Assembly: GCA_037446635.1 (NCBI GenBank)
Contig: JBBIIG010000044.1
Coordinates: forward strand, 1-20,227
Reading direction: 5' to 3'
Source of the DNA: a bacterium
Lineage (GTDB): Bacteria; Zhuqueibacterota; Zhuqueibacteria; Oceanimicrobiales; Oceanimicrobiaceae
DNA length: 20,227 bases
The translations under genes were made by a program, and so were the position numbers. This document shows positions 1-19,346 of this stretch, piece by piece. Under the pieces are notes generated by a model. It searched no databases, was not told where the DNA came from, and saw nothing but the letters and a program-made list of their open reading frames with translations. Position 1 is the stretch's first letter, and each line of letters begins with the position of its first letter.

Positions 1-25
1 AGAAAAAAACTAATTTAAGTTTTTC

Positions 26-1481: not shown

Positions 1482-2711
1482 TTATTTCCCCGACAAATCG
1501 AGGCACAGCAGTTCCTTTTGGTTGCGAACGAACAACTTGCCATCAGCCAGCGCGGGCACCGTCCAGCAGCGGCCGCGCAGCACTTGCGCCGCCGCCACTT
1601 CTCTGAACTCGTTGGGATTGGCTTCAATCAAACCTAACTTGCCGCGCTCACCCAAGACGACGAGATGGCCGTCGGCGAAAATGAGCGTGCCGTTCTGGTA
1701 ACCGCGCTGCGCCCATTTTTCTTCCTGTGTCAGCACGTTGACGCATTTCAAAATCGCGCGGTCAAAACCATAAATATGATCGCCCACCAAAACCGACGAC
1801 GAAAAATCGTTGCGCATCACCTTGCTTTCCCAGATGGGCTTGACCGCCGGCTGGTTATCCGCGACGATTATTTCCAGCAGCGCCGCGCCTTTTTCCGCGC
1901 CACTGGAGATGAAAATTTTATTCTCCGGCACAAACACCGGTGTCGCGGCATTAAACGCCTGCGGTGGAAACGGATACTTCCAATAAATCTGGCCGTCCTT
2001 TGGCGACACCGAAACCAGCGAGCTGCCGGTGAAAAAAATGATCTGCCGTACACCATTGACGGTGATGGCAATCGGCGCAGCGTAATCCGGGTTATCAAAG
2101 TGGGAAGCCCACGCCAGCTTGCCGTCCTTTTTGTTGAAGGCGATGAAAGCTTGGTTGTTCGCGCCGCCGGCGTTTACCAAAATCAGATCGCCTTCGAGAA
2201 TCGGCGACGTGGAAATTCCGTGCTGGGGAATGGCGGCGCTGTATTCTTCGCGCAGATTGTGCTGCCAGATGACTTTGCCATCGCTCAGGCTGAGCGCGAA
2301 CAACAGGCCGTTTGCGCCCAACGTAAAAATCCGGTCGCCAGCGATAGCCGGCGTGGCGCGCGGGCCATCACCGAATTCGCTGGGGAACGCGGCGTCGGAC
2401 TTGAACCGCCACAGCTCATTGCCGGTGGCAGCATCGTAGCAGATCACAAACTCCTCACCGCGCTCGCCAAACATCGTCACCAGCCGGCCGCCGGCGACTG
2501 CCATGCCCGAAAAGCCGCTGCCAATTTCGGTGCGCCACACAACCGGCGGTCCGGTTTCCGGCCAAGTTTTGAGAATGCCGGTTTCTTTAGAAATGCCATC
2601 GCGATTGGGTCCGCGCCACTGCGGCCAATCGTTGTCCCCTGCCAAAACTAATGATGCCCAAATCAAGCAGCACACCATCGCTGCTTTTGTTATGATGGTT
2701 TTGCCTTTCAT
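1482..2711 (-). CDS. Exported PQQ-like/BamB-like beta-propeller repeat protein (409 aa)
   Basis: Probable start is ATG 2711 (AGGAGG RBS), followed by a signal peptide ending VLA. Motif DWPQWRGPNRDG, then repeated 'A(L/F)DxxxGxxxW' Trp-docking repeats. The ORF-track extension to 2819 merely reads through the 8-mer repeat. Confidence 0.88.
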   Translation of the reverse strand: MKGKTIITKAAMVCCLIWASLVLAGDNDWPQWRGPNRDGISKETGILKTWPETGPPVVWRTEIGSGFSGMAVAGGRLVTMFGERGEEFVICYDAATGNELWRFKSDAAFPSEFGDGPRATPAIAGDRIFTLGANGLLFALSLSDGKVIWQHNLREEYSAAIPQHGISTSPILEGDLILVNAGGANNQAFIAFNKKDGKLAWASHFDNPDYAAPIAITVNGVRQIIFFTGSSLVSVSPKDGQIYWKYPFPPQAFNAATPVFVPENKIFISSGAEKGAALLEIIVADNQPAVKPIWESKVMRNDFSSSVLVGDHIYGFDRAILKCVNVLTQEEKWAQRGYQNGTLIFADGHLVVLGERGKLGLIEANPNEFREVAAAQVLRGRCWTVPALADGKLFVRNQKELLCLDLSGK

Positions 2712-2757
2712 GCCAGCCTCCTGATCTTGAATTTCAAAATTCGAGGTAGTATAACGA

Positions 2758-2868
2758 GGAGTAATGGATTGCTGGCGCATGGCAGTAATGTAAAAACGAC
2801 CATTAATCCACTGACCCACTCATCCAGAAATCCATTACTCCAGAACTCCACCACTCCAGTGCTCCAGC
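2758..2868. repeat. Inverted 8-mer tandem-repeat arms with no enclosed gene
   Basis: Left arm: GGAGTAAT GGATTGCT GGCGCAT GGCAGTAAT (2758-2789). Right arm: CCATTAAT CCACTGAC CCACTCAT CCAGAAAT CCATTACT CCAGAACT CCACCACT CCAGTGCT CCAGC (2800-2868). Confidence 0.8.
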
Positions 2869-2874
2869 AAGGGA

Positions 2875-4107
2875 TCACTTGCTCATCATCGTGCCGCCCG
2901 TGAGATCGAGCGCAACAATCTCTTCCTGATTCTTTACGTACAGTTTGCCGTTGGCCAACGTCGGCACGGTCCAGCAGCGGCCGCGCAGCACCTGCACCGA
3001 CGCCTTTTCGACGTACTGTTCTGGTTTGGCTTCCACCAGCAGCAGCTTGCCGCGCTCGCTGAGGACAATCAAATGGCCGTCGGCGTAAATCAATGCGCCT
3101 TTGCCCAGTCCGCGCGTGGCCCATTTTTCCTCTTGCGTGTTGACGTTGATGCACTTGAGCGTGGCCTCGTCAAAACCGTAGAGGTAATCGCCCAACAGCA
3201 CCGGCGACGCCCAGTGATTGCGCATCACCTGACTGCGCCAGACTTGCTCCACCTGATTGCCTTTGATTTTCAACACTGCCGCGCCGACGTTGTAACCGGA
3301 GGAGATAAACACTTTGTCCGGCGGAATGAACACCGGAGTGGCCGCGTTGACGTCGTAGCTAGTGCGCCAGGGATGCGACCACAGCTTTTTGCCGTCCGTG
3401 GGTGAGACCGAGACCAGCGCCGTGCCGGTGAAAAACAGGTACTGCTTAACGCCGTTCACAGTCACAGAGATGGGCGCCGAGTAGCCCGGAAGATCGGTTG
3501 CGGTTTTCCAAACCACTTTGCCACTTTTTTTGTTGAAAGCCATCACGCCGTTGTCGCCGCGGCCACCAACGTCCACCAGCAGCAGCTCGCCATCCACCAG
3601 CGGCGAGGTAGAGACGCCCCAGGTGGGAACTTGACCGCCGAATTCGCTCCGCAGATCGTGTCCCCAGACTTTGGCGCCGGTTTTGGCGTTCAACGCCGCC
3701 AGCTTACCCTGGGCACTCAGCATATAAACCAAATCGCCATCCACGGCCGGAGTCGAACGCGGACCGTTGCCTTGATCATTTTTAAAAGCTTGATCGATGA
3801 TCGTTTTCCAGATTTCTTTGCCGGTGGCGGCGTCGAGGCACACCGCCAGCTCGTCGGCGCGCGTGGCGTGAATGGTGTACATCTTGCCGTTGGCTACCAC
3901 AATGCCGGAATAGCCCTCGCCCGACGGCGCTTTCCAAATCACTTTCGGGCCCTCGGCGGGCCAGCTTTTGAGAATGGTCTCTTTGGAGATACCATCGCGA
4001 TTGGGACCGCGCCACTGCGGCCAGTCGATGGGCGGGGTTGCCAACGTAACGACCGCTAATATCATCAGCAAACAAACTGGGATGATCGTTTGAGGTTTAA
4101 ATATCAT
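2875..4107 (-). CDS. Exported PQQ-like/BamB-like beta-propeller repeat protein (410 aa), paralogue of 1482-2711
   Basis: Probable start is ATG 4107 (GGAGG RBS), followed by a signal peptide. DWPQWRGPNRDGISKET and QVLRGRCWTVP are identical to the neighbouring gene. Trp-docking repeats are present. Confidence 0.88.
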   Translation of the reverse strand: MIFKPQTIIPVCLLMILAVVTLATPPIDWPQWRGPNRDGISKETILKSWPAEGPKVIWKAPSGEGYSGIVVANGKMYTIHATRADELAVCLDAATGKEIWKTIIDQAFKNDQGNGPRSTPAVDGDLVYMLSAQGKLAALNAKTGAKVWGHDLRSEFGGQVPTWGVSTSPLVDGELLLVDVGGRGDNGVMAFNKKSGKVVWKTATDLPGYSAPISVTVNGVKQYLFFTGTALVSVSPTDGKKLWSHPWRTSYDVNAATPVFIPPDKVFISSGYNVGAAVLKIKGNQVEQVWRSQVMRNHWASPVLLGDYLYGFDEATLKCINVNTQEEKWATRGLGKGALIYADGHLIVLSERGKLLLVEAKPEQYVEKASVQVLRGRCWTVPTLANGKLYVKNQEEIVALDLTGGTMMSK

Positions 4108-4123
4108 AGGTTCCTCCGTGGCT

Positions 4124-4201
4124 AATTGATTATTGACTATTTGACTAATGAACAAACGCTGACGCAATGATTAATCAATAGTCAATAGACAATAATCAAT
4201 T
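4124..4201. repeat. Inverted 7-mer tandem-repeat arms with no enclosed gene
   Basis: Left arm: ATTGATT ATTGACT ATTTGACT AATGAAC (4125-4153). Right arm: AATCAAT AGTCAAT AGACAAT AATCAAT (4173-4200). Segments 4124-4141 and 4184-4201 are reverse complements at 17/18 positions. Confidence 0.85.
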
Positions 4202-4206
4202 GGACT

Positions 4207-6639
4207 TCACTTCTGTGTTTTCTGAATCGGGAAAAACGTCTCCAAAATATCATCGGTGCGGGCGCGCCAACTGGCGTAGCCGTAGCCTTCGTTGAACTCG
4301 CCGCCGTGCACCACGTAGCCTTTGTCCTTCAAATTTTTAAACAAAGCCGCGCAAACCGCCGGACGATCCAGTCCGCTGTTAGAGTCGCGAATATCGTATT
4401 TGCCCCAGTGCAGATAAAATTGAATGGGCAATTTTTCGGTACTCGCCTGCCCGTCCGGCAGGCGGGCGATCAAATCACGCAGCTCGTCCCCGCGCGGACT
4501 ATCGACGTTGGTGGATTGGCCGGCGATAAAATTCACGACGCCCGGATGTTTGAGCGCCGCGAGAATCGAGAGATAGCCGCCGGAGCTGCCGCCCATCATC
4601 AAACGCGCGTTGGGGTCAGCGATGGTGCGGTAGCGGCTGTCTATGAACGGCACCAGCTCTTCCATCATCGCCTGCGCGAACTTTTCCCGCGGCGCGCCGG
4701 CGTATTCCTGAAATCCGGCCTGCGGATTGACATGAATGAACACTGCAATCAGCGGCTGGATGGTTTTGCCGATCAGATTGTCGAGGGTGTTGGGCAACTT
4801 CGCCCAATTTTTGGCCTGCATGCCGTAATGGACGTACACCACCGGATATCGCTGCTCGCTTTCATCGTAACCAGCCGGCAGGTACACTTCGAGCTTGCGG
4901 CTGTTGCCCAAAATCTTGCTCTCGAAATTGAGGCTGTCGATGCGGCCACGCGCAATGCCGTCGGCCGGATCGTCAAAATGAGTCTCAGCTTTGCGTTTCG
5001 GCATCACCAACACCGACTGCTCGCCATTGAACGATCGCGCCTTGTGCGGATTCAACGGGTCGGTGATGGTTTCATCAAAGTTGCGGATGATCTGATAGGC
5101 GAGATAAGCATCCGGTGCGGTTTTAAAAGAGTAGTGATAAAAATCCGTATCGGCAATTCGATTGAACGGCACCTGCTGGCCGATGTTGAACATATCGCCG
5201 GCGAGGGCTAAATCTTTCGCCTCGCCGCGGTAAACGACGTGCACAAGCTCGTCGCCCTCGATGATTGGAAATTGCTTTTGCGATTTCATAAACTCGTCGA
5301 TAAGCGCTACTTTGGCCGTGGCCGCTTCCACTTTTTTGACAAAGTCCGCAAACTTGGAAGTCGCCGGCACCCCAGGCGCGGCTGGTTTCGGAATGTCGGC
5401 CGCCAGTACCTCATCCACTCTGCCAACCTCGACGCTGGCGATTTCGTGCAGGCTGCGGACATAAATGCGGCCATTGGCAAAACTGGGCGGCGTCCACGCC
5501 GGCTTATCGAACACGTTTAAACTCGCCACCTCCTCGTAGCCGGCGGGCGTCGCTTTCGCTGCATGCAGCCGGCCGTCTTTAGTTTGAATAATGAGATGGC
5601 CATCGACCAAAATCAGAAAGCCGTCACCCGGCGGGCGCGAGCGCCAAACCGTTTCGCCCGTAACGGCATTCACGCAGGTGAGAAAACGGCCGTTGTAGCC
5701 GTACAAATGGCCTTCGTGAAACACCGTGGGATTGTACGTCTGCTTGATGTTGCCGTTCTTCCAGATTTCTTGAACCGAATAGCTGCCGCCCTCCTTTTTC
5801 ACTTGCAGCAGCAGTGATTCCTGAAAGCGCGGCATCAAAAGGATTTTGTCGCCGTCCACCAGCACCGGCGTGCTGGTGTTGTCTTCCCCGTTAAATCTGT
5901 ACTCCCACAATTTTTCGCCCGATGCCGGCCGCAATCCCAAAATCATTTTGTTGCCGACGGCGAGCAACTGTTCTTCGCCAGCGAGTTTTGCCACCACCGG
6001 CGATTGGTGGGTGACGGTGTCGGCGCCAGCGCTCCACAACAGTTTGCCGGAATGTTTGTCGAAGCCGGAAATCGCGTTGTTGGCCGAGCCGCCGGTCTCG
6101 AGAATGAGAACATCTTTATAAACCAGCGGCGCGGTGGTGTAGCCATAAAACGGGGCGACGGATTTGTGATCTTTGATGAGATCGGTGGACCAGATTTCTT
6201 TGCCGGTTTGGACGTTGAGCGCGTAAAGCACGCCTTTCGGAGCGAGCGCAAAGACTTTGCTGCCGTCGATCACCGGCGTGGAGATGGGACCGTTGTGCGA
6301 GCCGTCATGGCCGCGATAGGTGGAATCCATTTTGAAGCGCCACAACTCGCGGCCGTTGTTGGCATCGAGCGCGATGATGTAATCGAAGGTGCTGTCCGAA
6401 AACATAGTGACCGCGCGGCCATCGGCCACCGACACGCTGGCGTAGCCGGAGCCGAGCGGTTTCTTCCACGCGATCTTAAGTCCCTGACCGTTGCCAAATT
6501 TCAGCACGTTGTGAAACGCTTTGCCATCGGCGTTAGCGCCGCGCCACGAAGGCCAGTCTGTGGAAAAAGGCGTTGAGCCAAGGGTCAACGCAACCAAAAC
6601 TAGCACACCCATCCACCCAAACTGTAAACGGTTTTTCAT
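4207..6639 (-). CDS. Exported PQQ-like beta-propeller fused to a Fes/enterochelin-esterase-like alpha/beta-hydrolase module (810 aa)
   Basis: GAGGTG RBS and signal peptide. DWPSWRG propeller of about 400 aa, then a CBM48/Fes-N-like segment (LAGDMF...YQII...DPLNP). The esterase part has SKILGNSRKLEVYLPAGY, ELVPFIDSRYRT and the nucleophile elbow GGSSG. Confidence 0.88.
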   Translation of the reverse strand: MKNRLQFGWMGVLVLVALTLGSTPFSTDWPSWRGANADGKAFHNVLKFGNGQGLKIAWKKPLGSGYASVSVADGRAVTMFSDSTFDYIIALDANNGRELWRFKMDSTYRGHDGSHNGPISTPVIDGSKVFALAPKGVLYALNVQTGKEIWSTDLIKDHKSVAPFYGYTTAPLVYKDVLILETGGSANNAISGFDKHSGKLLWSAGADTVTHQSPVVAKLAGEEQLLAVGNKMILGLRPASGEKLWEYRFNGEDNTSTPVLVDGDKILLMPRFQESLLLQVKKEGGSYSVQEIWKNGNIKQTYNPTVFHEGHLYGYNGRFLTCVNAVTGETVWRSRPPGDGFLILVDGHLIIQTKDGRLHAAKATPAGYEEVASLNVFDKPAWTPPSFANGRIYVRSLHEIASVEVGRVDEVLAADIPKPAAPGVPATSKFADFVKKVEAATAKVALIDEFMKSQKQFPIIEGDELVHVVYRGEAKDLALAGDMFNIGQQVPFNRIADTDFYHYSFKTAPDAYLAYQIIRNFDETITDPLNPHKARSFNGEQSVLVMPKRKAETHFDDPADGIARGRIDSLNFESKILGNSRKLEVYLPAGYDESEQRYPVVYVHYGMQAKNWAKLPNTLDNLIGKTIQPLIAVFIHVNPQAGFQEYAGAPREKFAQAMMEELVPFIDSRYRTIADPNARLMMGGSSGGYLSILAALKHPGVVNFIAGQSTNVDSPRGDELRDLIARLPDGQASTEKLPIQFYLHWGKYDIRDSNSGLDRPAVCAALFKNLKDKGYVVHGGEFNEGYGYASWRARTDDILETFFPIQKTQK
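4442..4468. repeat. Intragenic mini-palindrome CGCCTGCC-cgtcc-GGCAGGCG, encoding approximately RLPDGQA
   Basis: Perfect 8-bp stem (4444-4451 with 4457-4464). It shares GGCAGGCGGGCG with 19939-19950. Confidence 0.65.
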
Positions 6640-6703
6640 AAATCACCTCTTTGGTTAGCCTTTCATGCCTCAGTTTATATTAGTTGGTTTCCTCTCATCA
6701 AGC

Positions 6704-6760
6704 GGAGTAATGGAGCAATGGATTACTGGAGTAATGAAAAAGCCAACGCCAGCGCTCCAA
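6704..6760. repeat. 8-mer tandem-repeat arm with a degenerate inverted partner
   Basis: GGAGTAAT GGAGCAAT GGATTACT GGAGTAAT (6704-6735), followed by CCAACG CCAGCGCT CCAA (6743-6760). Confidence 0.75.
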
Positions 6761-6779
6761 ATTAAAGTCCGATTTTTAA

Positions 6780-6841
6780 CTCATTCCCAAGTTCCACTTG
6801 AAAACGTACTTTTACCGCGAAGTGTTGCTTTGCCGGGGTAA
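6780..6841. repeat. Degenerate REP-like hairpins downstream of the radical SAM gene
   Basis: CTCATTCCCAAGT-tcc-ACTTGAAAACG resembles the CTCGTTCC...GGAAACG palindrome at 20133. A weak TTACC...GGTAA stem follows at 6812-6841. Confidence 0.4.
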
Positions 6842-6860
6842 CATAACATCCAATGTTGTG

Positions 6861-8210
6861 TTACGTGTAGCGCGCATTGCGATACTTCTCGTGGTAAAAT
6901 TCCGGCAGCAGGGTATCGACACGCAGAAAGCCGGCACGGGTCAAGGACACGCGCTCGGGTGAAAAAGTAAGCATGCCTTCGTGTGCCAGTTTCTGAAACG
7001 CGGCGCCGAATTTCTCGATGATGTCAAGGTCGAATTTGTCTTTGAAATATTTTGGGAAAATCTCGCCTAATTTCAGTTGCAGGATCATCTCACGAGTGAC
7101 GCGCTCCAGCGGCGTGGTGACAAACGCGCGGCTCAGCGGCAAGCGCCCGGATTCAAGCATCGTCAAATACTCATCCCACGACGGCGTGTTTTGAATGTGT
7201 ACCCCGCTCGCATGCCCGAACGATGCCACGCCAGCGCCAATCATATCGGTGCCATGCCAGACGGAATCGCGATAAACAAACCGGCAATTCTGCTTATTTT
7301 TCACCATCGTGTAGGCGCTGGAGATTTCATAACCGGCGGCCGCGAGTTCATTGAAGGCATAATCGTGCCACTCGCGTTTGGTTTGCCAGTTGGCGACCGG
7401 CGTGTCCAATTTCCCTTCCGAAAGCAGTTGCGTGTAAACCGTGTTGTACGGTAATTCCATTTGATAAATGGTGACACTATCCGGGTTAAGCGCAATGGTC
7501 TGTTTGACATTGTCGCGCCAGGTATCCCAGGTTTCGCCCACCATGCCAGCGATGAGATCGATGTTGAGTTGATCGAATTTCAGTTCGTTGATCCACGGCA
7601 GCACTTGAAAAATCTCTTTCGCAAGATGGGCGCGACCATTTTCCTCCAAAATGCGATCGTTGAAATTTTCCACGCCAAGACTGAGCCGTGTGACGCCAAT
7701 CTCACGAATGGCCTCCAATTTCGATTGCGACAGGGTGCCGGGTTCGCATTCAAACGTGACTTCTTCCGCGCCGTCCCAGGGGAGGGCCGTCTTGACGCGC
7801 TTCACGAATTTTTTGAGATGATTGACGCTGATGAACGAAGGCGTGCCGCCGCCAAAGTACACGAATTTCAGGTTCCGTCCCTTCACCGAGGCCAGGCGGC
7901 TGTACAGCTCCACTTCCTTCGCCAGCGCGTCGATGTAGCGTTCGATTTGCGAGCTATTTTTGTCGGTGTAAACTTTGAAGTAACAAAACTTGCAGCGCTT
8001 GCGGCAAAATGGAATGTGCAAATAGAGTCCGAGCGTGCTGCCGGCCAGCGGTTCTGAGTTTAGAGCGCGCAGAGCGTCGTTGATTTTGTCTTTGCTCCAA
8101 AACGAGTAGGGCGGATAATTCGAAACGAAGACGCTGCCCGCTTCGGTTTCTTTTAGATCAAGTCGCGCGGTGGCGGGCTCTGGTTTGAGTTTTTCTACGG
8201 TCGTTGCCAT
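6861..8210 (-). CDS. HemN-like (coproporphyrinogen III oxidase family) radical SAM enzyme, function not assigned (449 aa)
   Basis: LYLHIPFCRKRCKFCYF (CxxxCxxC), VYFGGGTPS, RLSLGVENF, NIDLIAG, and a HemN_C-like C-terminus (LTRAGFLRVD). Probable start is ATG 8210 after AGGA. Confidence 0.88.
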   Translation of the reverse strand: MATTVEKLKPEPATARLDLKETEAGSVFVSNYPPYSFWSKDKINDALRALNSEPLAGSTLGLYLHIPFCRKRCKFCYFKVYTDKNSSQIERYIDALAKEVELYSRLASVKGRNLKFVYFGGGTPSFISVNHLKKFVKRVKTALPWDGAEEVTFECEPGTLSQSKLEAIREIGVTRLSLGVENFNDRILEENGRAHLAKEIFQVLPWINELKFDQLNIDLIAGMVGETWDTWRDNVKQTIALNPDSVTIYQMELPYNTVYTQLLSEGKLDTPVANWQTKREWHDYAFNELAAAGYEISSAYTMVKNKQNCRFVYRDSVWHGTDMIGAGVASFGHASGVHIQNTPSWDEYLTMLESGRLPLSRAFVTTPLERVTREMILQLKLGEIFPKYFKDKFDLDIIEKFGAAFQKLAHEGMLTFSPERVSLTRAGFLRVDTLLPEFYHEKYRNARYT

Positions 8211-8247
8211 GATGTTCCTAATTGTTTTCATGTCATTCAAATGAAAT

Positions 8248-8317
8248 GTCATTCAGGAGGAACCGTTTTAAATCAACGGTTCTTACTCAGACTTAAAAAA
8301 GATTCCTCCGGAATGAC
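8248..8317. repeat. Intergenic palindromic element GTCATTCAGGAGGAA...TTCCTCCGGAATGAC
   Basis: Terminal inverted repeats match at 14/15 positions (8248-8262 with 8303-8317). An alternative inner stem GAACCGTT/AACGGTTC lies at 8260-8282. Confidence 0.75.
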
Positions 8318-8324
8318 CATGTCG

Positions 8325-9446
8325 TTACTTTTCTCCAAAACAATACACCACCCCATCATCTCCGCCAATCACGAATTGGCTGGCCGAGAAACCCGGCGAC
8401 GCCACGATACTGGCGCCAGTTTCGAATTGCCAAAGTGATTTGCCGGTGGCGACATCCAAAATATGAATCTCGCCGCTGCCAGAGGCGGCGAGCACTTTGT
8501 CGCCGACGATCACCGGCGAAGACTCCACTTTGGATTTGGCCATGAACGTCCACTTGGCTTCGCCGGTTTTGGGATCGAGCGCGTGGATCATTTTGTCGCG
8601 CCCGCCGACGATCACCACATCATTGGTCACCGCCGCCGAAGCATAAAACGGAAACTGCCGCTTCGGATTTTGATAGCGCCAAATGATTCCGCCGCTTCTC
8701 AAATCGACGCAGAGTACTTGATTGCCAAACGAACCCACGTAAACGCGGTCGTGTAAAATGGCCGGACTCGCTGCCACGTAATCGCCGAGGGCAATTTTTT
8801 GTTTCTCTTTGCCGCTGTGAATGTCAACGACTCGCAAATAGCCGTCGCAGCCGGTGATGATCACCATGTCATCAAAAATGGCCGGCGTGCCGTGAACGTA
8901 GCCGTCGGTTTCCAATTTCCAAAGCAATGTGCCGTCTTTTGTTGAAAGGCAATAAAGGAAATTATCATAAGCACCCAAAAGCACGCGGTTTTCGAAAAAA
9001 TTAGCGGAAGAAATGATGCCACCATCGGCTTTGAATTTCCATATTAATTGGCCGCGGGCGGCGTCCAGCGCGTGAAAGGCGCCCAGCTCGTCACCGAAAA
9101 AAACTACCCCGTTATACACCGAGGGCGACGACTTGATTTCATCGGATGCCTGATATTTCCATTTCAACTCACCGGTGGCGAAATCGAGGGCGTACAAAAA
9201 CCCATCGAGCGAGCCGACATAAACAACACCGTTCGCAATCGCAGCGGTGGATTCAATCGCATCGCCGGCTGCGAACGTCCACCGCGGCTCGGGATTTTCC
9301 GGCAGCGTCCCGACGGCCACGCCGGTGTTTTGCGGGTTGCCGCGGAACATTGGCCAGTCGGTGGTCGCGATCTTTCCGTTTTGAGAGAATGATGTCGAGA
9401 AAAGGCAAAGGCTAAGACTGAGGCTGAGCACAAAACGTTTACTCAA
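8325..9446 (-). CDS. Exported PQQ-like/BamB-like beta-propeller repeat protein (about 373 aa)
   Basis: DWPMFRGN followed by regular repeats 'SSP.....VYVGSxDGxLYALDxxTGxxxW'. The start is proposed at TTG 9446, giving signal peptide MSKRFVLSLSLSLCLFSTSFS. The ORF stays open to ATG 9596 through a palindromic repeat, so the start is uncertain. Confidence 0.85.
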   Translation of the reverse strand: MSKRFVLSLSLSLCLFSTSFSQNGKIATTDWPMFRGNPQNTGVAVGTLPENPEPRWTFAAGDAIESTAAIANGVVYVGSLDGFLYALDFATGELKWKYQASDEIKSSPSVYNGVVFFGDELGAFHALDAARGQLIWKFKADGGIISSANFFENRVLLGAYDNFLYCLSTKDGTLLWKLETDGYVHGTPAIFDDMVIITGCDGYLRVVDIHSGKEKQKIALGDYVAASPAILHDRVYVGSFGNQVLCVDLRSGGIIWRYQNPKRQFPFYASAAVTNDVVIVGGRDKMIHALDPKTGEAKWTFMAKSKVESSPVIVGDKVLAASGSGEIHILDVATGKSLWQFETGASIVASPGFSASQFVIGGDDGVVYCFGEK

Positions 9447-9481
9447 CCATGATGGTTTAGTAAACGTGACCCGCACCCGCT

Positions 9482-9558: not shown

Positions 9559-9605
9559 CGTTGTAAATGAAATTTGTAATCCAACATTTTAAACATAAAT
9601 GAAAT

Positions 9606-10807: not shown

Positions 10808-12151
10808 CTAATCGAACGACAGTGGCAGGCCAATAATCACCCACAACGCCCAGACGACAGCCAAAACCGCGACCCGGGCGATGGACTCGCGAAAACGGTA
10901 AACCCACGGCGCCGAGCGACTGCGCCCCTGCTGGAAGCCAACCACTGCTAGCATGAGTAATGTTACCATGTTCCATCCGAATACGGCGTAGCGGTTCGGG
11001 GTCAAACCGAAATTAAGGGTGCGGCTGGCGATGGCCGCCAGCGCATAAATGTTAAGAAACAAGGTTAAACCTACCAATACCTGGACAGCATAGCGCAAGA
11101 TGGTATCCTGACGCGGAGAGCGCTCATCAAGCGGGCCCGATACGACCACGGTGAGCAGAACTAAAATCGCCAGGATGGTGGCATTGTAGATAATCAAAAC
11201 TTCCCGCTCCTGAAATGGTCGCCAGAAATAGGCGGGAACAAACCAGAAAACGTAGATAAGCAACACGCCAAGGGCCAGCGGCAGGATAAGCTGGGCGACG
11301 ATTCTGAGAATACGGGTGATACCGGTCGTCCAGTCTTGCGCTGCGGGCGCAGCCGTGGGGTCGTAAACGCTGGCCAGCGCCAACAGCGGAATGGTGCCAA
11401 TGCCCCAGGCCGCAACGGATTGTAAGTTATCTTGCGGGAGATGGATTCCCAAGACCGCAAATATGCCATAGGTTAAGCCCAGAAAAATAGCGCCAACCGC
11501 AAAATAGATGCCGCCCACCAGAACGGTTTCCACCGATTTCACAAGATACGCATAGCCTTGCCTGGCCGGGTCAGGTCGCCCCAAAGTCAGAGCAGCGCCT
11601 ATTGCAGCCCAGGCAACAAACGGCAGGTGAAGGCTGCTCAAAATCGCCGTGGCATCTACTCTGCGCCAGTTTGTGACAGCGGTATAGACAGCAACCGGTA
11701 TGACAGTTAGAGCGGCATATAGATACATGCGTTTCCTTGAGCGGTCAACCATTGCCAGGTAGAAAACGATACTTAGGGCGGTCAGCGGACTCCACCCAAT
11801 CCAGAACAGAGGTTCCGCTTCACCGGGTATCGGAACTGGCGCCTTATCACCGGCAAAAAGCGCATACCCGATGCCCAGCACTACGCTCGTCGCAATGGCG
11901 GTCCACCAGCGTCGGGTCTGGCTTTGATTCGCGGTTTGCTCATCCACTGTAACTAGAGGTGGAGGCAAAGCCAGGACGTCCAGTCGATAAGCCCAGGCCG
12001 AGAACAGGATGTTGTGCGGATGCTCGCCCGCACATCGTCCTATCGCCTCTTTAAAAGCGGCCTCATTTCCGGCCACAAGGGCCTGTTTGTAGATTCGTTC
12101 CAATCCAGCCGCATCATCGCGTGCCTCTTCAATTTGGCTTTTCAGGTTCAT
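10808..12151 (-). CDS. Polytopic membrane protein, DUF4153-like (447 aa)
   Basis: A soluble helical N-terminus ending AWAYRL, roughly 12 hydrophobic segments, and a C-terminal GLTPNRYAVFG motif. The family call is from recall only. Confidence 0.65.
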   Translation of the reverse strand: MNLKSQIEEARDDAAGLERIYKQALVAGNEAAFKEAIGRCAGEHPHNILFSAWAYRLDVLALPPPLVTVDEQTANQSQTRRWWTAIATSVVLGIGYALFAGDKAPVPIPGEAEPLFWIGWSPLTALSIVFYLAMVDRSRKRMYLYAALTVIPVAVYTAVTNWRRVDATAILSSLHLPFVAWAAIGAALTLGRPDPARQGYAYLVKSVETVLVGGIYFAVGAIFLGLTYGIFAVLGIHLPQDNLQSVAAWGIGTIPLLALASVYDPTAAPAAQDWTTGITRILRIVAQLILPLALGVLLIYVFWFVPAYFWRPFQEREVLIIYNATILAILVLLTVVVSGPLDERSPRQDTILRYAVQVLVGLTLFLNIYALAAIASRTLNFGLTPNRYAVFGWNMVTLLMLAVVGFQQGRSRSAPWVYRFRESIARVAVLAVVWALWVIIGLPLSFD

Positions 12152-12170
12152 CTCCCAATCCTTTACACAG

Positions 12171-12192
12171 AATCAATAGTCAATCGACAATT
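12171..12192. repeat. Solitary 7-mer arm AATCAAT AGTCAAT CGACAAT
   Basis: Same unit series as 4173-4193. It supplies the last codons (LSIDY) and the stop of the ALDH-fold gene. Confidence 0.7.
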
Positions 12193-13600
12193 GAAACGCG
12201 CGTTGCCGATACAAATGCTCGAACAAATTCCCCTCATGCGGCTGATCCCAACTGATGCGGTTGGTTGGAAACGGGCCGAGGTTGAGGCGATCGATGTGCT
12301 TTGCCGACATCAGCTTTTGAATGAATTTGCGATCTTCGGTGATGGCCGTTACAACGAGTGAATAGCCCATGCGCTCGATCAATTCGTCTTGCGCCGCCTC
12401 CACCACAGTGGCAAATGGAAACAGCAACTCATATTTGGTCAACGGATGTTCCGGGCTCTCGCACCAAACAATCGTTGGCAGCAAAAACGTCGCGCCGTCT
12501 TTTTTGAGGAGACGAGATGTTTTGCGATATTTTGCGGTCACGTCTTCCGCGCCGCCCTGATGCAAGCCGCGATCGATCATCTCCGACATCCGTTCCGCCA
12601 CTTTCGGATTGACGAACGCGGCGAGCTGCGCTTCCGGGTCATCCATCGCGCGGGCAGTGACCTGCGCCAGCCGCTGCGCCAGCGCTTCGGCCATGTCGCG
12701 GCCGTGTCGCGGCGCCCAAACTCCGGAGGCGTTCAAACACGAGCGGCCGCTGTTGGAAAGAATCGACTCGATCATCACGTCGAGATGCTGGCGCCAGTTA
12801 TCGATTTGATCTTCGCCGAAAACGATCTTGCTCCAGCCGGGCCCGTGCAACTGGATGCGGCGATCCGATTCCCATTTGCGCACGGTCGCTTCATCGCCGA
12901 ACAACATCGAGCGGCCGCATTGTAAAAGAATCTGCGTCGCGCCGGAGTAATCGGTCGGATAAAAACTGAACGCTTCCGGCGGACAACCCGCGGCGATGAA
13001 CGCTTGAATGACGCGATAGGGCGTCCACGGCTCCTGACTGCCGGGTTTTAAAACCAGCGGCACTTTCAATGGGATACTCGGCAGCCACAGCGAATGCACG
13101 CCCGGCGAATTGTTGGGCAGTATCGCGCCCAGCGATTCCGTTTGCACCGAGTAGCTGATGGCGCGCTCGCCCTCTTTACCCCAGCCAACATCGAGCACCG
13201 AGAGGTCGAGGCCGCGCGTGAGTCCGCCCAGCACAGTCTCCATTTCATCCAGCACTTTGCGGATTTTCTCCATGTTGCGGCGGCAGAGAATTTCCGGCAT
13301 CCCAGTGGTCGCCGACTGAATTTTCACAAACTCAGCCGGCGACTGCGCCTCGCCATCGAGCGGCAAATCGGCATCCATGAACAGCGCGGCGGCATTTTTG
13401 CACATCGTCAGCAACTCATGCACCGGCAGCGCGTCGAGGGCGGCTTTGTTGCGCCCCGCCTGCATGAAATCGCGGCGAATGAGTCCGGTGTTGGCCTGAC
13501 TTAATTCGGCCACGGTTTCACCGCTGATGAAATTTTTGACGCGAACCGTTTCTAAACTTTTGTAGGGTTGGCCGGCTCGCAGGATAGGAATGTGAGGCAT
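12173..13600 (-). CDS. Aldehyde-dehydrogenase-fold protein, probable acyl/arylcarboxylate reductase subunit (GriD/EhpG/LuxC-like)
   Basis: ILPNN, VLKPGSQEP, catalytic Cys in NSGRSCLNAS, ELLFPF. LHGPG replaces the ELGG general-base motif of hydrolytic ALDHs. It lies directly downstream of an EhpF/GriC-like gene, apart from the inserted cassette. Confidence 0.85.
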   Translation of the reverse strand: MPHIPILRAGQPYKSLETVRVKNFISGETVAELSQANTGLIRRDFMQAGRNKAALDALPVHELLTMCKNAAALFMDADLPLDGEAQSPAEFVKIQSATTGMPEILCRRNMEKIRKVLDEMETVLGGLTRGLDLSVLDVGWGKEGERAISYSVQTESLGAILPNNSPGVHSLWLPSIPLKVPLVLKPGSQEPWTPYRVIQAFIAAGCPPEAFSFYPTDYSGATQILLQCGRSMLFGDEATVRKWESDRRIQLHGPGWSKIVFGEDQIDNWRQHLDVMIESILSNSGRSCLNASGVWAPRHGRDMAEALAQRLAQVTARAMDDPEAQLAAFVNPKVAERMSEMIDRGLHQGGAEDVTAKYRKTSRLLKKDGATFLLPTIVWCESPEHPLTKYELLFPFATVVEAAQDELIERMGYSLVVTAITEDRKFIQKLMSAKHIDRLNLGPFPTNRISWDQPHEGNLFEHLYRQRAFQLSIDY

Positions 13601-13611
13601 TTTAACTGAAT

Positions 13612-14039
13612 ATTGTCAAATGATTATTGACTAATTTCTAATCTAATATTTCGCTGAGCTGTTTTACGTGACGCAATAAAGATTGAAGTCAGTTCCTTTG
13701 CTTCGTTTAATAGTGGTTCAACTAATTCTTTCTTCATCAGCGCTTCATCAATTATGAACTCCATCCAAAAAGCCGATTCATCGGTCTCCTCTATGACAAT
13801 GCTAACCTTGGAAACAAACACAGCTTTCGTTTGCGCTAAGCAGGTTGCGCGATAATTGGCAGCGACAGAAGTTGAACATCGAATTAGCTGCCCTTGAACA
13901 TGTCTTCCTAATTTCGTATCCGGCAACGCCAAAGCAAGCTTGACACAGCGATGAGCAAAATCCTTTGTCCTTTTCTTTAATTGCTCGAAATCCATAAGAC
14001 AACAATCCATTAAACAATAATCAATAATCAATAGACAAT
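13612..14039 (-). mobile_element. Putative cassette: four-helix-bundle gene enclosed by inverted 7-mer tandem-repeat arms
   Basis: Left arm ATTGTCAAATGATTATTGACTAATT (13612-13636) and right arm CAATAATCAATAATCAATAGACAAT (14015-14039) are reverse complements at 20/25 positions. More degenerate units extend to 13997. The interior is AT-rich. Mobility is inferred. Confidence 0.55.
13624..13995 (-). CDS. Four-helix-bundle protein (23S rRNA intervening-sequence protein/TIGR02436-like; 123 aa)
   Basis: LKKRTKDFA...QLIRCSTSVAANYRA...FVSKVSIVIEETDESAFWMEF...EAKELTSIF matches the family pattern. Probable start is ATG 13995. The upstream MIIDYCLMDCCL is translated repeat. Confidence 0.88.
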   Translation of the reverse strand: MDFEQLKKRTKDFAHRCVKLALALPDTKLGRHVQGQLIRCSTSVAANYRATCLAQTKAVFVSKVSIVIEETDESAFWMEFIIDEALMKKELVEPLLNEAKELTSIFIASRKTAQRNIRLEISQ

Positions 14040-15112
14040 TAATACACGCCTACCACCACCGATTCCTGCAACGACGACAACAACCGCACATTGGCCACAC
14101 CATCCCACGGATATTTCTCGATGGGCGGGGTGCGTTCGCCTTCGTCGCGTTCCAAAAATCGCGGCATAAAAAATTCTTTCGTCAGCGTGGTGAGCATCAC
14201 GCGGCCGGTCTGGCCGTAGTCCACCCCTTCTTCGGGATTGTCCGGATTGACAATTTCAAACACGGCGCGCGGATGCGGCGGATAATAAATGATGGCGTAG
14301 TTGTCCGCCGGATCAAACGGCTTGTGCACGGCGAGTCCCATGAGCGTGTTGCCGTAAGTCGGCACGAAATCGATGCCCGGCACCAGTTCCTCGCGGGCGA
14401 AGCGGTGGAACTGCGCGTTCATCTCAGTGCCGCCGCAGAAAATACCAGTGATGCCCGCCTTCTTCAAATTGATTTTCTCGCACAGCGCTTCCAGCAGCTT
14501 CGGGGTGATGAACAGGCATTTGATGTTATCGTGCGCGCGCAAGATGGTCAGCGCCTGATCGACGACGTGATTTTTGTACAGCTCCAGCTCCGCGAAATTG
14601 CCGCGTTTGATGAGCTTGTTCACCCAGCGCGGATCGAGATCCACAAAAAAGCAGATGCCGCCGCGATGCTGACAGAGATGCTCGACCGAGAGTCGCAGCC
14701 GCCGCGGGCCGCTGGGTCCGACCATCAGCCAATCAGCGCCTTTGGGGAACGTCTCGTCGGAAAGGGTCTCGCTGAACAGTTCGTAGTCGATTTGAAAATC
14801 GCGGATGTTGATACGGGTTTTGGGCACGCCGGTGGAGCCGCCGGTTTCGAAAACATAAGTGGGTAGATTTGCGAATGCTTTCGGCACCCATTTGCGCACC
14901 GGTCCGCCGCGCAGCCAGCTATCTTCAAAGTGGCCGAGGAGTTTCAGATCATCGTATCCGCCGATTTCTTTGCGGGGATCGAAATCCAGTGTCTTGGCAT
15001 AGTCCAGCCAAAACGGGCAGCCGGTCGCCGGGTCAAAATGCCAGTTGACGATCTCGCGCACGTGGGCGTCCAGCCTTTGTTTCGCTTGTTTTATTTTTTC
15101 GGAAAGTGTCAT
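14039..15112 (-). CDS. Truncated ANL-superfamily adenylating enzyme, EhpF/GriC-like (357 aa)
   Basis: WHFDPATGCPFWL N-terminus, P-loop ETGGSTGVPK, A5-like TYGNT and A7-like FLERD. It ends without the C-terminal subdomain, as is known for EhpF. Confidence 0.8.
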   Translation of the reverse strand: MTLSEKIKQAKQRLDAHVREIVNWHFDPATGCPFWLDYAKTLDFDPRKEIGGYDDLKLLGHFEDSWLRGGPVRKWVPKAFANLPTYVFETGGSTGVPKTRINIRDFQIDYELFSETLSDETFPKGADWLMVGPSGPRRLRLSVEHLCQHRGGICFFVDLDPRWVNKLIKRGNFAELELYKNHVVDQALTILRAHDNIKCLFITPKLLEALCEKINLKKAGITGIFCGGTEMNAQFHRFAREELVPGIDFVPTYGNTLMGLAVHKPFDPADNYAIIYYPPHPRAVFEIVNPDNPEEGVDYGQTGRVMLTTLTKEFFMPRFLERDEGERTPPIEKYPWDGVANVRLLSSLQESVVVGVY

Positions 15113-15125
15113 TTGTTCGCTAAGA

Positions 15126-15646
15126 GGATTAATGGATTAATGGATCAATGGATCAATGTTGTTTTTGGATTCGTAAATGCCTTCGTCGTCGGAGATTCGA
15201 TTTGACCATGTTCCGGATTCTTTCTTCTTCTCCAAGCTTTCTACTAATTTCAAAAGTCTGTTTTCCACTTCATAATGAAGTAAATCAATTTTCTTAAATT
15301 GCTCTTGAGTGATCTGATCTGTTTCTTTCAGGCCAATGGCTCGGCTCAGTGTCTCTGAAAGTGAGGACAAGGCAATAAACAAGAATTGCAGATACTCGTT
15401 TATTGAACGGCGACTGTAGCCTTCTGAAATGTTCGACGAAACCGATTGCGCCGCATCAGCGATTTGGGCGCGTAACTTAAAATCTACCTTGTTTTCTTTA
15501 TAAACAACTTTCCAAATCAGCTTGAACAACTCGATGGACTTCTGCCAAACCTCAAGCTTCATATATCCCCGATTCATATTGCGAAGCTGTGTATATTCAC
15601 TCATCGCTCCTCCCATTGATCCACCGATCCATTAATCCATTGATCC
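15126..15646 (-). mobile_element. Putative cassette: four-helix-bundle gene enclosed by inverted 8-mer tandem-repeat arms
   Basis: GGATTAATGGATTAATGGATCAATGGATCAATG (15126-15158) and CATTGATCCACCGATCCATTAATCCATTGATCC (15614-15646) are reverse complements at 30/33 positions. The interior is AT-rich. Mobility is inferred. Confidence 0.6.
15137..15604 (-). CDS. Four-helix-bundle protein (23S rRNA IVS protein-like; 155 aa)
   Basis: GYMKLEVWQKS...LRAQIADAAQSVSSNISEGYSRRSINEYLQFLFIALSSLSET is the classic family motif. GGAGG RBS precedes ATG 15604. The last codons (IDPLIH) come from the repeat arm. Confidence 0.9.
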   Translation of the reverse strand: MSEYTQLRNMNRGYMKLEVWQKSIELFKLIWKVVYKENKVDFKLRAQIADAAQSVSSNISEGYSRRSINEYLQFLFIALSSLSETLSRAIGLKETDQITQEQFKKIDLLHYEVENRLLKLVESLEKKKESGTWSNRISDDEGIYESKNNIDPLIH

Positions 15647-15665
15647 AACATTCCGTCAACTCAGC

Positions 15666-17123: not shown

Positions 17124-17126
17124 GGG

Positions 17127-19346
17127 TTACTTGCTCCTCGTAATTTTGATGTTGTCAAAATAGATAGTGGTGACAGCGTCGCCGTGGAGGGCGGGGCTGC
17201 CGTTGCGATTCGGCATCGGGTCTTCGACTGTAATCGTCCACTCGCCCGGCTCCTGTTGATCGCGCGGACACACCTTGCCTCTGACGATCGCTTTGCTGCC
17301 TTCGTAATCGACTTGCATTTTCATGGTGTACCAGCTTTCGGGATTCCAGCTAAAATCGATCTCCTTCAAAATTCGCAGTTCGGCGGGCCAGTCGCGGATT
17401 TGCAGCTTCTGCTTTTTGGTTTGAAAATCGAGATAGTAGCGATTGTTGATGACGCCGAAATCCGGGCTGCGGCGTTTTTCCTGCGTGCCCTTCACATCGG
17501 CTTGAATGACGTAGCCGGTCATCTCGGGCCGGCCGAGATACAAATTGTGGCGCGTCAGCAAGCGCTCGGGCTTTTCCTTGGCCAACACTTTTCCACCCTC
17601 AAAATCCACCACTCTGAATTTTGAAGCGCCCGGCCACAGCGGTGGATTTTTGTCTAACTCAAAATTTTCGAAGTCGTAACTCCACGGCAGATCGACTTGC
17701 ACGGCAACGCGCGACTTCGATTCCAGCTCGCCGACTTTCGCCACCACGTATCCCGCTTGGTTGCCGGCAGATTTGTCGGGGGTGAATTTACCCTTCGCGT
17801 CAACCGTGCCTTTCAACCCGGCAACGGAGAAGGTTGCCGGCTTTTCGCCCAAGAATCGGCCTTTGTCATCGAACGCCCGAACTTTGAATTGAATGTTCTG
17901 ATTCGCATAAATCCATTTTTCCGAAGGCACAATTTGGATGTGGGCCACCGGCGCGTTAGCATCCGGCTTCTCCTCCGTTAGCTCAGGCGGAGCGCTGGAT
18001 TTATGATTGGAACTCGCGCCTTTTTTCCCAAGGCAATACAAACCCTCTTCGGTGGTGAAATAAATTTTGCCGTAAGCGATGGCAGCCGAGCCGTAAATTT
18101 CGGCTTTGCGTTTGGCATCGAAGTCGATGCTCTTGCTGTCGAGCGCTTTGGCGGAAGTATCGCCGGGCTGAATGATGTGAAAGCCGCCGTTGACCTCGGT
18201 GGCGAAAATTTTGCCATCGGCCCACACTGGCGAGCCTTTGCCCACGGTGCCGATGTTGAACGTCCAGAGCTCTTTGCCGGTAGCCGCGTCGAGGGCCATC
18301 AAGTTGCCGGAGTTGGTGACGACGTAAAGCCGGCCGTCGTGAAGCAGCGGCGAAACGTAGCCGGCGCGCACGCCGGGATGGCGCCAGACTTCATGGGTTT
18401 TGGTGATGTCGCCGCGGCCGGTGGCATCGATGCAAAACATCCCGCCCATTTCTGTGGTATCAAAATTTTCTTCGCTGTGGCAAATATAAACTTTATTGCC
18501 ATCGACCACGGGCGACGTGTGAACTGCTTCTTTCGAAAATGAAAACTTCCACAATTCTTCGCCGGTACGAGCTTTCAAGCCATAGAGCGCACCGTCCGCG
18601 CCGCCGACGATCAACTGGCGCACGCCATCGATGATCGCGATCACCGGCACAGAGTAGTTGGTGTTCTTCGGAATGCCGCTGAGTGCGGTCACCCACACCT
18701 GCTCGCCGGTGCGCTTATCATAAGCGGCGAGGCGGTTGCGCTGAGCCAACTGATCGCCCCAGCTATTATTGATGTAATCGACGATGACGAGATCTTCGTC
18801 GATCACCGGCGTGCCGGTGCGGCCGCCGTAGCCGGAGAAGCGATTGAATTCTTCCTCAAACGAAACTTGCCAGAGAATCTTTCCATCTTTGTCGAAACAA
18901 ACAAACCAGCCATCGACGCCAAAGAGATAGACGTTGCCGGTCTCCGGATCGCCAGCGAGATTGCTCCACTCCACACGGGTGAAGGGTACGCTGGTGTGAA
19001 AGACGTTGGCCTTGTGTTCCCAAATCAGCTTGCCGGTTTCGGCGTCGAAGCAGGCGATGTGGCGCTGCATGGTGATGCCCTCGCCGGTGCGGCCGTTCAC
19101 GTAAACCCGACCGTTCATCACAATCGGCGTCGAACGGCTAGTGAAGTTAGCTTTCCACAACAGGTTCTCGCCATCGAGCGACCAGTTGGAAACCAGCCCC
19201 GTTTCATCGGAGACGCCGTTTTGATGCGGGCCGCGCCAACTCGGCCAGTCGCCGGCCTGCGCAGGCAGGCTGGCCACGACGACGCTCACGCCGGCGAGCA
19301 TCAAAGCTAAACGTGAAAAAACAACTCTGATTTTGGATGTCATCAC
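17127..19346 (-). CDS. Exported PQQ-like beta-propeller protein with C-terminal Ig-like and lectin-like beta-sandwich domains (739 aa)
   Basis: Signal peptide ending AQA, then a DWPSWRG propeller of about 440 aa. A low-complexity linker leads to an Ig-like segment (IQIVPSE...FKVRAFDDKG) and a ConA-like tail (WYTMKMQV...YFDNIKIT). Start is GTG 19346 or ATG 19343. Confidence 0.85.
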   Translation of the reverse strand: MMTSKIRVVFSRLALMLAGVSVVVASLPAQAGDWPSWRGPHQNGVSDETGLVSNWSLDGENLLWKANFTSRSTPIVMNGRVYVNGRTGEGITMQRHIACFDAETGKLIWEHKANVFHTSVPFTRVEWSNLAGDPETGNVYLFGVDGWFVCFDKDGKILWQVSFEEEFNRFSGYGGRTGTPVIDEDLVIVDYINNSWGDQLAQRNRLAAYDKRTGEQVWVTALSGIPKNTNYSVPVIAIIDGVRQLIVGGADGALYGLKARTGEELWKFSFSKEAVHTSPVVDGNKVYICHSEENFDTTEMGGMFCIDATGRGDITKTHEVWRHPGVRAGYVSPLLHDGRLYVVTNSGNLMALDAATGKELWTFNIGTVGKGSPVWADGKIFATEVNGGFHIIQPGDTSAKALDSKSIDFDAKRKAEIYGSAAIAYGKIYFTTEEGLYCLGKKGASSNHKSSAPPELTEEKPDANAPVAHIQIVPSEKWIYANQNIQFKVRAFDDKGRFLGEKPATFSVAGLKGTVDAKGKFTPDKSAGNQAGYVVAKVGELESKSRVAVQVDLPWSYDFENFELDKNPPLWPGASKFRVVDFEGGKVLAKEKPERLLTRHNLYLGRPEMTGYVIQADVKGTQEKRRSPDFGVINNRYYLDFQTKKQKLQIRDWPAELRILKEIDFSWNPESWYTMKMQVDYEGSKAIVRGKVCPRDQQEPGEWTITVEDPMPNRNGSPALHGDAVTTIYFDNIKITRSK

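Follow-up and report, generated by a model that had tools for sequence, protein, structure and literature searches.

The window, that is, the whole 20,227-nucleotide stretch analysed here (contig JBBIIG010000044.1 of assembly GCA_037446635.1), carries 14 co-oriented genes on the minus strand, the first beginning at position 19346 and the last reaching the start of the contig; the longest open reading frames (ORFs) are separated by 3–221 bp (Table 1). Six of them encode pyrroloquinoline quinone (PQQ)-like propellers, P1 to P6, and four encode the cytoplasmic enzymes on which a first-pass annotation built its proposal: an adenylating enzyme (adenylase), its partner with an aldehyde dehydrogenase (ALDH) fold (reductase), an Fe-containing alcohol dehydrogenase (Fe-ADH) and a radical SAM enzyme. 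According to that proposal, the enzymes make or tailor a small molecule which the exported propellers then use. Our data show that the window covers the first half of a conserved gene system; the full cluster comprises ∼17 genes. The four enzymes track the propellers but are not required, and the best tracker of the propellers is a glycosyltransferase of family GT4 with a CxxC motif, usually encoded beside an FtsX-type ABC transporter.

Table 1. Genes of the window, listed from the upstream to the downstream end of the minus-strand array (aa, amino acids)
Feature	Position	Strand	Remarks
P1 propeller, PQQ_2 (PF13360)	17127–19346	-	∼300 aa of extra domains after the propeller; directly upstream of P2
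P2 propeller, PF13360	15666–17123	-	8-bladed, highly conserved
Four-helix-bundle gene (23S rRNA-IVP family, TIGR02436)	15137–15616	-	local insertion
EhpF/GriC-family adenylating enzyme	14039–15112	-	PDB 3L2K match
Second four-helix-bundle gene (TIGR02436)	13624–14031	-	local insertion; two family relatives have one as well
ALDH-fold adenylase partner (EhpG/GriD role)	12173–13600	-	PF00171
447-aa membrane protein	10808–12151	-	no Pfam or NCBIfam match; local insertion
Fe-ADH	9606–10718	-	family match and metal ligands
P3 propeller, YxaL/ACSF4-type, 373 aa, TTG start	8325–9446	-	PF13570, 213 bits; PF13360
HemN-like (class C) radical SAM enzyme	6861–8252	-	below HemN and HemW cut-offs
P4 DWPxWRG propeller with esterase-like domain	4207–6639	-	PF13360; catalytic His missing
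P5 stand-alone DWPxWRG propeller, 410 aa, 8 blades	2875–4107	-	member of a large multi-copy family
P6 propeller, 409 aa	1482–2711	-	P5 paralogue, 55% identical
TonB-dependent receptor, N-terminal part	1–1354	-	cut by contig end

The features listed by the first-pass annotation stand for the most part. The lengths given for the six propellers are correct once the likely starts are taken, and each has an N-terminal hydrophobic segment (best 12-residue Kyte-Doolittle mean 2.3–3.2), while the four enzymes (0.5–1.8) are without a signal peptide. None of the six propellers has a BamB lipobox, and the sole Cys-Cys pair lies inside the signal peptide of P6, so that no mature propeller contains one. 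The assignment of the adenylase to the EhpF/GriC type is borne out by PDB 3L2K (E 3.6e–44 over residues 16–357), and family matches agree with the Fe-ADH and HemN-like radical SAM calls. The reductase does have the ALDH fold, but the label ‘LuxC-like’ is loose, neither the LuxC nor the LuxE family being listed at E 0.01 for the window proteins. Likewise, the propellers are arranged around the four enzymes as described, but three further ORFs, the two four-helix-bundle genes and the membrane protein, break the enzyme run. Insertions similar to the two TIGR02436 genes are also present in the clusters of relatives L003, L153, L194 and L197.

A TonB receptor follows the propellers, as had been noted, but the contig ends within its gene, and the cluster runs on to contig C17. 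The TonB reading frame closes with a TAA at 26–28, in an error-rich contig end. The start of C17 overlaps the window end over 48 bases, 41 of them identical, has Ser at the stop codon and encodes the remaining barrel (284 aa, C-terminal); the contig of a close relative, compared over bases 5–201, shares the C17 reading at base 40 and contains ∼300 bases too many for this place. We read the stop as a contig-end error. After the rest of the TonB gene, C17 encodes a flavin enzyme of the PltA type, a small DUF3311-like protein, an SSS importer, the CxxC GT4, an EamA-like protein, a 4HBT thioesterase and two ABC components, namely an ATPase and a permease of 1176 aa containing two FtsX domains. The order TonB receptor, flavin enzyme, GT4 is the same in all five extended loci, and ABC genes are found in all four that reach that far. 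Neither phenazine nor aminohydroxybenzoate core genes are among the scanned genes of the window and C17. In the source genome a small c-type cytochrome (L082:4478–5026, PF02276 match) lies between SSS and GT4; none was found at this place in the five extended relatives. The ABC permease (L082:11766–15296) has a periplasmic YWDQFRGAP that resembles the propeller start WPQWRGP, a likeness that may be due to chance.

The neighbourhood of the adenylase was compared in the best 80 of at least 596 relatives, many of the loci being truncated. Their records are titled as Calditrichia, Poribacteria, Latescibacterota, Gemmatimonadota, Acidobacteriota and Planctomycetota. Within 10 kb of the adenylase we found the reductase in 55 loci, P1 and P2 in 48 each, Fe-ADH in 29, P3 in 25, the radical SAM gene in 24 and the TonB gene in 13. 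The order P1-P2-adenylase-reductase-FeADH-P3-radical SAM-P5-TonB recurs in loci titled as several phyla. The 447-aa membrane protein has no match in any of the 80 adenylase loci. Just upstream of P1, on the same strand, lies a gene for an intradiol dioxygenase-like protein with a twin-arginine (TAT) signal (19445–20107); it is likewise missing from the 80 loci, with one weak homologue in genome G048.

Genome-wide co-occurrence was followed in 415 genomes (133 of candidate division KSB1, probably the phylum of the source genome, as close relatives of P2 bear this label, 151 Acidobacteriota and 131 Planctomycetota), using the P5-family profile, GT4 and the adenylase as queries with E-value limits of 1e–25 or 1e–40 for propellers, 1e–60 or 1e–50 for GT4 and 1e–30 for the adenylase. 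DWPxWRG propellers are present in 130 genomes (∼30% of the sample), usually in several copies, the CxxC GT4 in 124 and both in 123. The 285 propeller-negative genomes contain only one GT4, with an internal stop, and one adenylase remnant. Seven genomes have propellers without GT4 (G050, G066, G107, G067, G231, G303 and G369); in G050 the cluster contig stops at the flavin gene, and G066 and G107 have a single propeller match each. The predicted co-occurrence of enzyme module and propellers holds in one direction: 89 of the 90 genomes with an adenylase orthologue have propellers, the exception being a 120-aa remnant, but 41 of the 130 propeller genomes are without the adenylase. The adenylase count leaves out 14 distant EhpF-like matches (32–38% identity), which stand apart from the orthologue clade (52–89%) and occur in 14 genomes, none of them with propellers. 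In two propeller-negative Planctomycetota loci (L146, L147) such distant genes (33–38%) are accompanied by MMPL-like, SCP2-like, SDR, aminotransferase and U32 peptidase-like genes, as judged by eye, and possibly belong to a different, perhaps lipid, pathway. The radical SAM gene was found in 35 of 151 Acidobacteriota, all 35 propeller-positive.

Part of this co-occurrence is trivial, since the operon itself often contains a P5-type gene. The informative part is that dispersed extra propeller copies are almost never found without GT4. GT4 is mostly single-copy, while propellers reach at least 12–15 in some genomes. The co-occurrence of enzymes and propellers persists when their genes are hundreds of kb apart, and four single-contig Acidobacteriota with a split cluster keep the adenylase, GT4, the radical SAM gene, P2, the flavin enzyme and Fe-ADH. 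We regard a functional link between the gene system and the propeller family as very probable.

It appears that the enzymes of the window can be replaced. In eight adenylase-negative genomes (G075, G035, G092, G298, G300, G306, G332 and G352) the propellers have other neighbours, namely an NHL protein, a ferredoxin, a NapH-like membrane Fe-S protein, a NuoE/F fusion and a GltD-like flavoprotein. We call this arrangement type B and that of the window type A. GT4 directly follows the type-B genes in seven of the eight; G092 has P3, GT4 and ABC genes on another contig. A search with a type-B GT4 yielded 32 metagenome loci of at least 6 kb, of which 29 contain the GltD-like gene, 28 P3, 27 the ABC ATPase, 26 NuoE/F and none the adenylase; conversely, no type-B genes were found in the 80 adenylase loci. 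Among 107 full-length GT4 loci, some of which repeat a genome, type-A neighbours are seen in 42, type-B neighbours in 39 and neither kind in 26; no locus combines the two. In a midpoint-rooted FastTree phylogeny of GT4, type B falls in two clades, a weak hint of repeated swaps. The shared core of both types is GT4, P3 and the ABC transporter, to which P2 probably also belongs, and the four enzymes singled out at first are therefore one of two upstream modules. Genome G046 has a cluster of P2, P3, P5, TonB, GT4, thioesterase and ABC genes with none of the enzymes, and no adenylase was found genome-wide; this gene content would suit a scavenger. A terpene cyclase was considered as a fixed part of type B and rejected, being found in two of the five adenylase-negative genomes searched. 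In several loci (L148:15300–19807, L152, L153, L154 and L187) DUF116/polyprenyl synthase, prenyltransferase-like, squalene-cyclase-like and B12 radical SAM genes are seen beside or apart from some of the type-B clusters.

The propellers themselves are not tied to PQQ synthesis. The source genome, which is 97% complete, gave no pqqC match and no pqqE above the cut-off, while the same pqqC model matched 10 other genomes (9 of 151 Acidobacteriota and 1 of 131 Planctomycetota). Two PF03070 genes of the source genome were rejected as PqqC, since they look TenA-like by eye and are unmatched by the PqqC model. Propeller genomes mostly do without pqqC, which was found in 3 and is missing from 75 of the 78 propeller-positive genomes tested. 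The family is thus independent of PQQ synthesis. The six propellers score 31–98 bits against TIGR03075 (PQQ-dependent alcohol dehydrogenases, cut-off 480), 58–189 against BamB TIGR03300 (cut-off 285) and 37–83 against TIGR04528 (acido-empty-quinoprotein group A, cut-off 650). The profile alignment of the P5 family shows no match to the Cys-Cys and metal-ligand motifs of quinoproteins, while P2 has a Cys and acidic residues near the corresponding columns. Equating the Arg of the family motif GPRSTP with that of quinoprotein NRG was given up, the two being off by 1–2 columns. Three Acidobacteriota (G243, G180 and G207, the last without a pqqC match) have 23–61 quinoprotein-like TIGR03075 matches besides the DWPxWRG family; their candidate counts reflect true quinoproteins and were not used as family sizes. 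A separate propeller with a lipobox lies in the source genome (C56:22249–26374), next to a gene of 979 aa that by eye resembles Omp85; this propeller may be the true BamB-like one.

The predicted folds of P2 and P5 are 8-bladed propellers (pLDDT 89 and 90). A fold search places YxaL and BamB closest (Z 34–36) and quinoproteins further away (Z 28–30), returning only generic 8-bladed propellers. P2 is 61–79% identical across phyla and has loops with invariant His, Asp, Glu and Arg, including the motifs FPHN, NGVDExH, HGQW and GQDPEHG; by blade topology these would lie on the top face and form a possible metal or catalytic site. It gave one match in each of five genomes tested, a type-B genome included, and the orthologue of type-B genome G075 is 38% identical. 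The ∼300 aa beyond the propeller of P1 look Ig-like and lectin-like by eye. A predicted complex of P1 and P2 scored 0.01, and apparent P1-P2 fusions in three Acidobacteriota were dismissed, the long frames over P2 being overlapping separate genes in GC-rich DNA. P3, a lipoprotein in G075, is a candidate periplasmic receiver. P4 was considered as a feruloyl-type esterase releasing aryl acids, and this was dropped since His is missing in all 14 aligned domains of its type and the nucleophile Ser in 12 of them; in family relatives L191, L194, L195 and L197 such propeller/pseudo-esterase fusions stand in tandem two to four times within the cluster. The P5 family is large: 9,950 clusters at 50% identity match its profile at E 1e–30, although propellers of other kinds may be among them. 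Apart from glycines, the conserved positions of the family include W1, R5, R91, Y183, C297 and R370, its top matches are mostly stand-alone propellers of ∼400–550 aa, and databases name them BamB or PQQ-binding.

A likely reaction can be given for each cytoplasmic enzyme. In the adenylase, E89, G91, G92, T94 and G95 of the ETGGSTG loop and the ERD motif are invariant in all 80 sequences, and it likely activates an aromatic acid. The reductase lies in the same locus in the 55 of 80 cases counted above by a score filter, some loci ending at a contig edge, and beside the adenylase in 10 of 10 further Acidobacteriota loci; none is next to the adenylase in G012 and G013. Its catalytic Cys288 is present in 49 of 49 aligned sequences and His252, aligned with the general-base Glu of oxidising ALDHs, in 48 of 49. 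By the ALDH mechanism, His in place of this Glu suits an acyl-transferring reductase, and the ALDH-fold partner is likely an acyl-AMP reductase. Fe-ADH keeps its metal ligands D183, H187, H252 and H266 in 28 of 28 sequences and likely turns the aldehyde into an alcohol. The radical SAM enzyme stays below the equivalog cut-offs for HemN (176 of 325 bits), HemW (168 of 205) and HutW (196 of 400); with CxxxCxxC in 21 of 21 sequences and a HemN C-terminal domain it belongs with class C, and likely performs a methyl or C1 transfer. In 12 Acidobacteriota loci (L041–L079), probably of one clade, a membrane protein that by eye looks like YhhQ, a queuosine-precursor transporter, lies directly upstream of the adenylase.

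The enzymes encoded on C17 extend this picture. The flavin enzyme aligns with PltA at E 4.6e–55 and has GxGxxG, WxWxIP and a Lys matching the PltA Lys, which we take to be the signature motifs of PltA-type halogenases; its nearest solved structures are PDB 8ZOP, PltA and ChlB4. It does not reach the cut-off for CmlS, and 147 bits are also scored with the hydroxylase QhpG. Ring halogenation or hydroxylation may be its role. GT4 (PF00534/PF13439) reached no named NCBIfam family but retains the residues for donor binding. It has a C-terminal E-x7-E (E343 in 97 of 107 and E351 in 107 of 107 sequences) and an N-terminal C15-x-x-C18-x-x-D21, with C15 and D21 in all 107 and C18 in 106. In Planctomycetota, some Acidobacteriota and two KSB1 genomes a chorismate-lyase-like gene, often together with a PaaK-like ligase, adjoins the flavin enzyme; though a weak call, it points to 4-hydroxybenzoate.

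We favour the view, at a probability of about 45%, that the system reduces, tailors and glycosylates an aromatic acid, probably of the hydroxybenzoate type, and passes the product on to the propellers, whose predicted ligand or cofactor it is. The aromatic substrate is suggested by the EhpF homology, the chorismate-lyase-like gene, the PaaK-like ligase, the 4HBT thioesterase and the PltA/ChlB4-type flavin enzyme. The source genome has the TonB and SSS genes and neither the chorismate-lyase-like nor the PaaK-like gene, and may therefore import the acid through TonB and SSS; where the chorismate-lyase-like gene exists, 4-hydroxybenzoate could be made instead. The ring would be tailored by the flavin enzyme, through halogenation or hydroxylation, and by the class C radical SAM enzyme. 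The EhpF/GriD-type pair would adenylate the acid and reduce it to the aldehyde and Fe-ADH would carry it to the alcohol, as judged from family membership, active-site residues and the precedent of GriC/GriD, which adenylate 3-amino-4-hydroxybenzoate and reduce it to the aldehyde (PMC10179220). GT4 would then add a sugar, the ABC system would transport the product and P3 would hand it over. P1, P2 and the many dispersed DWPxWRG propellers would finally use it, a step drawn from the gene profile alone. In type B, the NADH/Fe-S/NapGH-like chain would take the place of the enzymes for supply, tailoring and reduction. The mostly single-copy GT4 and the multi-copy propellers suggest one supply machine with many clients.

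Several points weigh against this view. Related genomes among those compared are not independent, although even within families of KSB1 some members have the genes and others do not (11 of 16 and 10 of 14 have them in two such families). The large searches scored 11–14 candidates per genome, and the adenylase is missing from the 41 of 130 propeller-positive genomes mentioned above. The chorismate-lyase-like gene has no Pfam match, PF01947/PF04345 being found on 11–19% of the members of neighbouring clusters (Atlas), and its match to PDB 2NWI (E 0.005) stands behind haemoglobin matches; as the source genome has neither this gene nor the PaaK-like one, the substrate is derived from relatives. 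Type-B clusters show no aromatic biosynthesis genes, and in the complete type-B genome G075 neither the flavin enzyme nor Fe-ADH has an orthologue; the alcohol can therefore be the ligand throughout only if such genomes scavenge it. Finally, no acidic or His residue is conserved at 70% in the P5 family, and its fusions (repeated propellers, methyltransferase, WD40, esterase, ECF sigma) fit a binding module as well as an enzyme.

A more specific form of the favoured view is that the pathway makes a redox cofactor independent of PQQ, namely a hydroxybenzyl or quinone compound in glycosylated form, which is loaded into the propellers in the periplasm. We consider this form doubtful. If true, the ‘BamB-like’ proteins of Planctomycetota, Acidobacteriota, KSB1, Poribacteria and Latescibacterota would be a hidden class of periplasmic enzymes, with type-B propellers wired to NADH via the NapGH-like chain.

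The mutual exclusion of the two types in the 107 GT4 loci can also be explained, though this seems unlikely to us, by a common task of delivering electrons to the periplasm, in type B through an NADH/Fe-S/NapGH-like wire and in type A through an acid/alcohol shuttle. In such a shuttle SSS would import the acid, ATP and NAD(P)H would be spent on its reduction, the EamA-like protein would export the product and P1/P2 would re-oxidise it, while the GT4-ABC-P3 core would make or place whatever gets reduced. Both modules are redox in nature and occupy the same slot upstream of P3/GT4, type A holds an importer as well as the exporter-like EamA, and the invariant His/Asp/Glu loops of P2 would fit. 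However, several type-A clusters have no SSS or EamA-like gene, the loop is costly in ATP, and this reading specifies neither the direction of electron flow in type B nor a periplasmic acceptor.

FtsX-type (type VII) ABC transporters typically carry lipid-like cargo out of the inner membrane. Their presence in the core is consistent with another explanation, which we hold to be improbable, that the system builds an envelope glycoconjugate or glycolipid with an aromatic unit and that the propellers bind it as non-redox anchors or sensors carrying varied cargo. The propeller cargo domains are indeed diverse, sigma factors and the pseudo-esterase among them, and some type-B genomes have polyprenyl-synthase and squalene-cyclase-like genes. 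Yet the top family matches are mostly stand-alone propellers, type A has no conserved lipid-transfer gene, the cyclase-like gene was found only in the two of five genomes mentioned above and the NapGH-like chain would have no obvious role.

An ordinary halogenated secondary-metabolite cluster with the propellers as incidental passengers is very unlikely: clusters of halogenase and aryl-CoA ligase with PQQ-like domains have been counted among natural-product clusters (bioRxiv 10.64898/2026.08.03.742642), but the co-occurrence with dispersed propellers is near-perfect, all parts are kept after operon break-up and the second cluster type has no tailoring enzymes. A role of the propellers in binding scavenged PQQ, or in BamB-like assembly, independently of the enzymes is hardly credible, for although their folds are nearest YxaL and BamB and databases name them accordingly, they reach at most 189 of 285 bits for BamB and 98 of 480 for quinoproteins, have neither lipobox nor mature Cys-Cys nor, in the P5 family, quinoprotein motifs, and do not track pqqC.

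The propeller family is very large, is routinely mislabelled and occurs in abundant soil, sediment and sponge bacteria. A single GT4 gene predicts propellers in 123 of 130 genomes and offers a direct handle on it. Were the product a new cofactor or envelope ligand, the expansion of the family would be explained and thousands of BamB/PQQ annotations corrected. The chemistry would be new as well, with a carboxylate reductase that is split and stands outside antibiotic pathways, and with a CxxC in the active site of a GT4.

Known systems share parts of this arrangement. In the case of mycofactocin and its dependent oxidoreductases, too, a set of single-copy genes goes together with a protein family of many copies. 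The same holds for PQQ and the quinoproteins, which also have the 8-bladed PQQ-like fold; here, in contrast, there are no pqq genes, no precursor peptide was seen and two upstream modules are interchangeable. A stand-alone EhpF-family adenylase next to an ALDH-fold partner is likewise found in EhpF/EhpG (the phenazine D-alanylgriseoluteic acid) and GriC/GriD (grixazone), which differ by their phenazine or aminohydroxybenzoate core. It should be noted that the likeness of the reductase to EhpG/GriD lies in the ALDH fold, Cys288 and the Glu-to-His change and not in a direct sequence comparison. Propellers of the BamB/YxaL/Rv3035 type are the top fold matches of P2 and P5, yet at 16–22% identity, and the window propellers differ from them in having no lipobox, many copies per genome and a tie to GT4 and the ABC transporter.

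Closest in gene content is the ‘Halo_AMP’ pseudoclass, comprising halogenase and aryl-CoA ligase clusters of sponge and seawater Acidobacteriota, Latescibacterota and Poribacteria, in which PQQ-like domains, radical SAM, thioesterase, glycosyltransferase and TonB genes are frequent and unexplained (10.64898/2026.08.03.742642). Some of these clusters probably belong to the present system. The sections of that study considered here take the natural-product view and follow a P450 cluster; the acid reductase, the GT4-ABC core, type B and the genome-wide link are not described in them. A planctomycete two-gene locus, baaA/baaB, for 3,5-dibromo-p-anisic acid, with BaaB ∼44% similar to Bmp5 (10.1101/723874), resembles relatives of our cluster in that a chorismate-lyase-like gene lies beside a flavin halogenase, whereas the present flavin enzyme is nearest to the PltA/ChlB4 type and is part of a cluster of ∼17 genes. 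We found no paper describing the system in a literature search whose coverage mostly excludes subscription journals. Its parts come from known families, while the whole matches none of the known systems and is apparently both undescribed and widespread.

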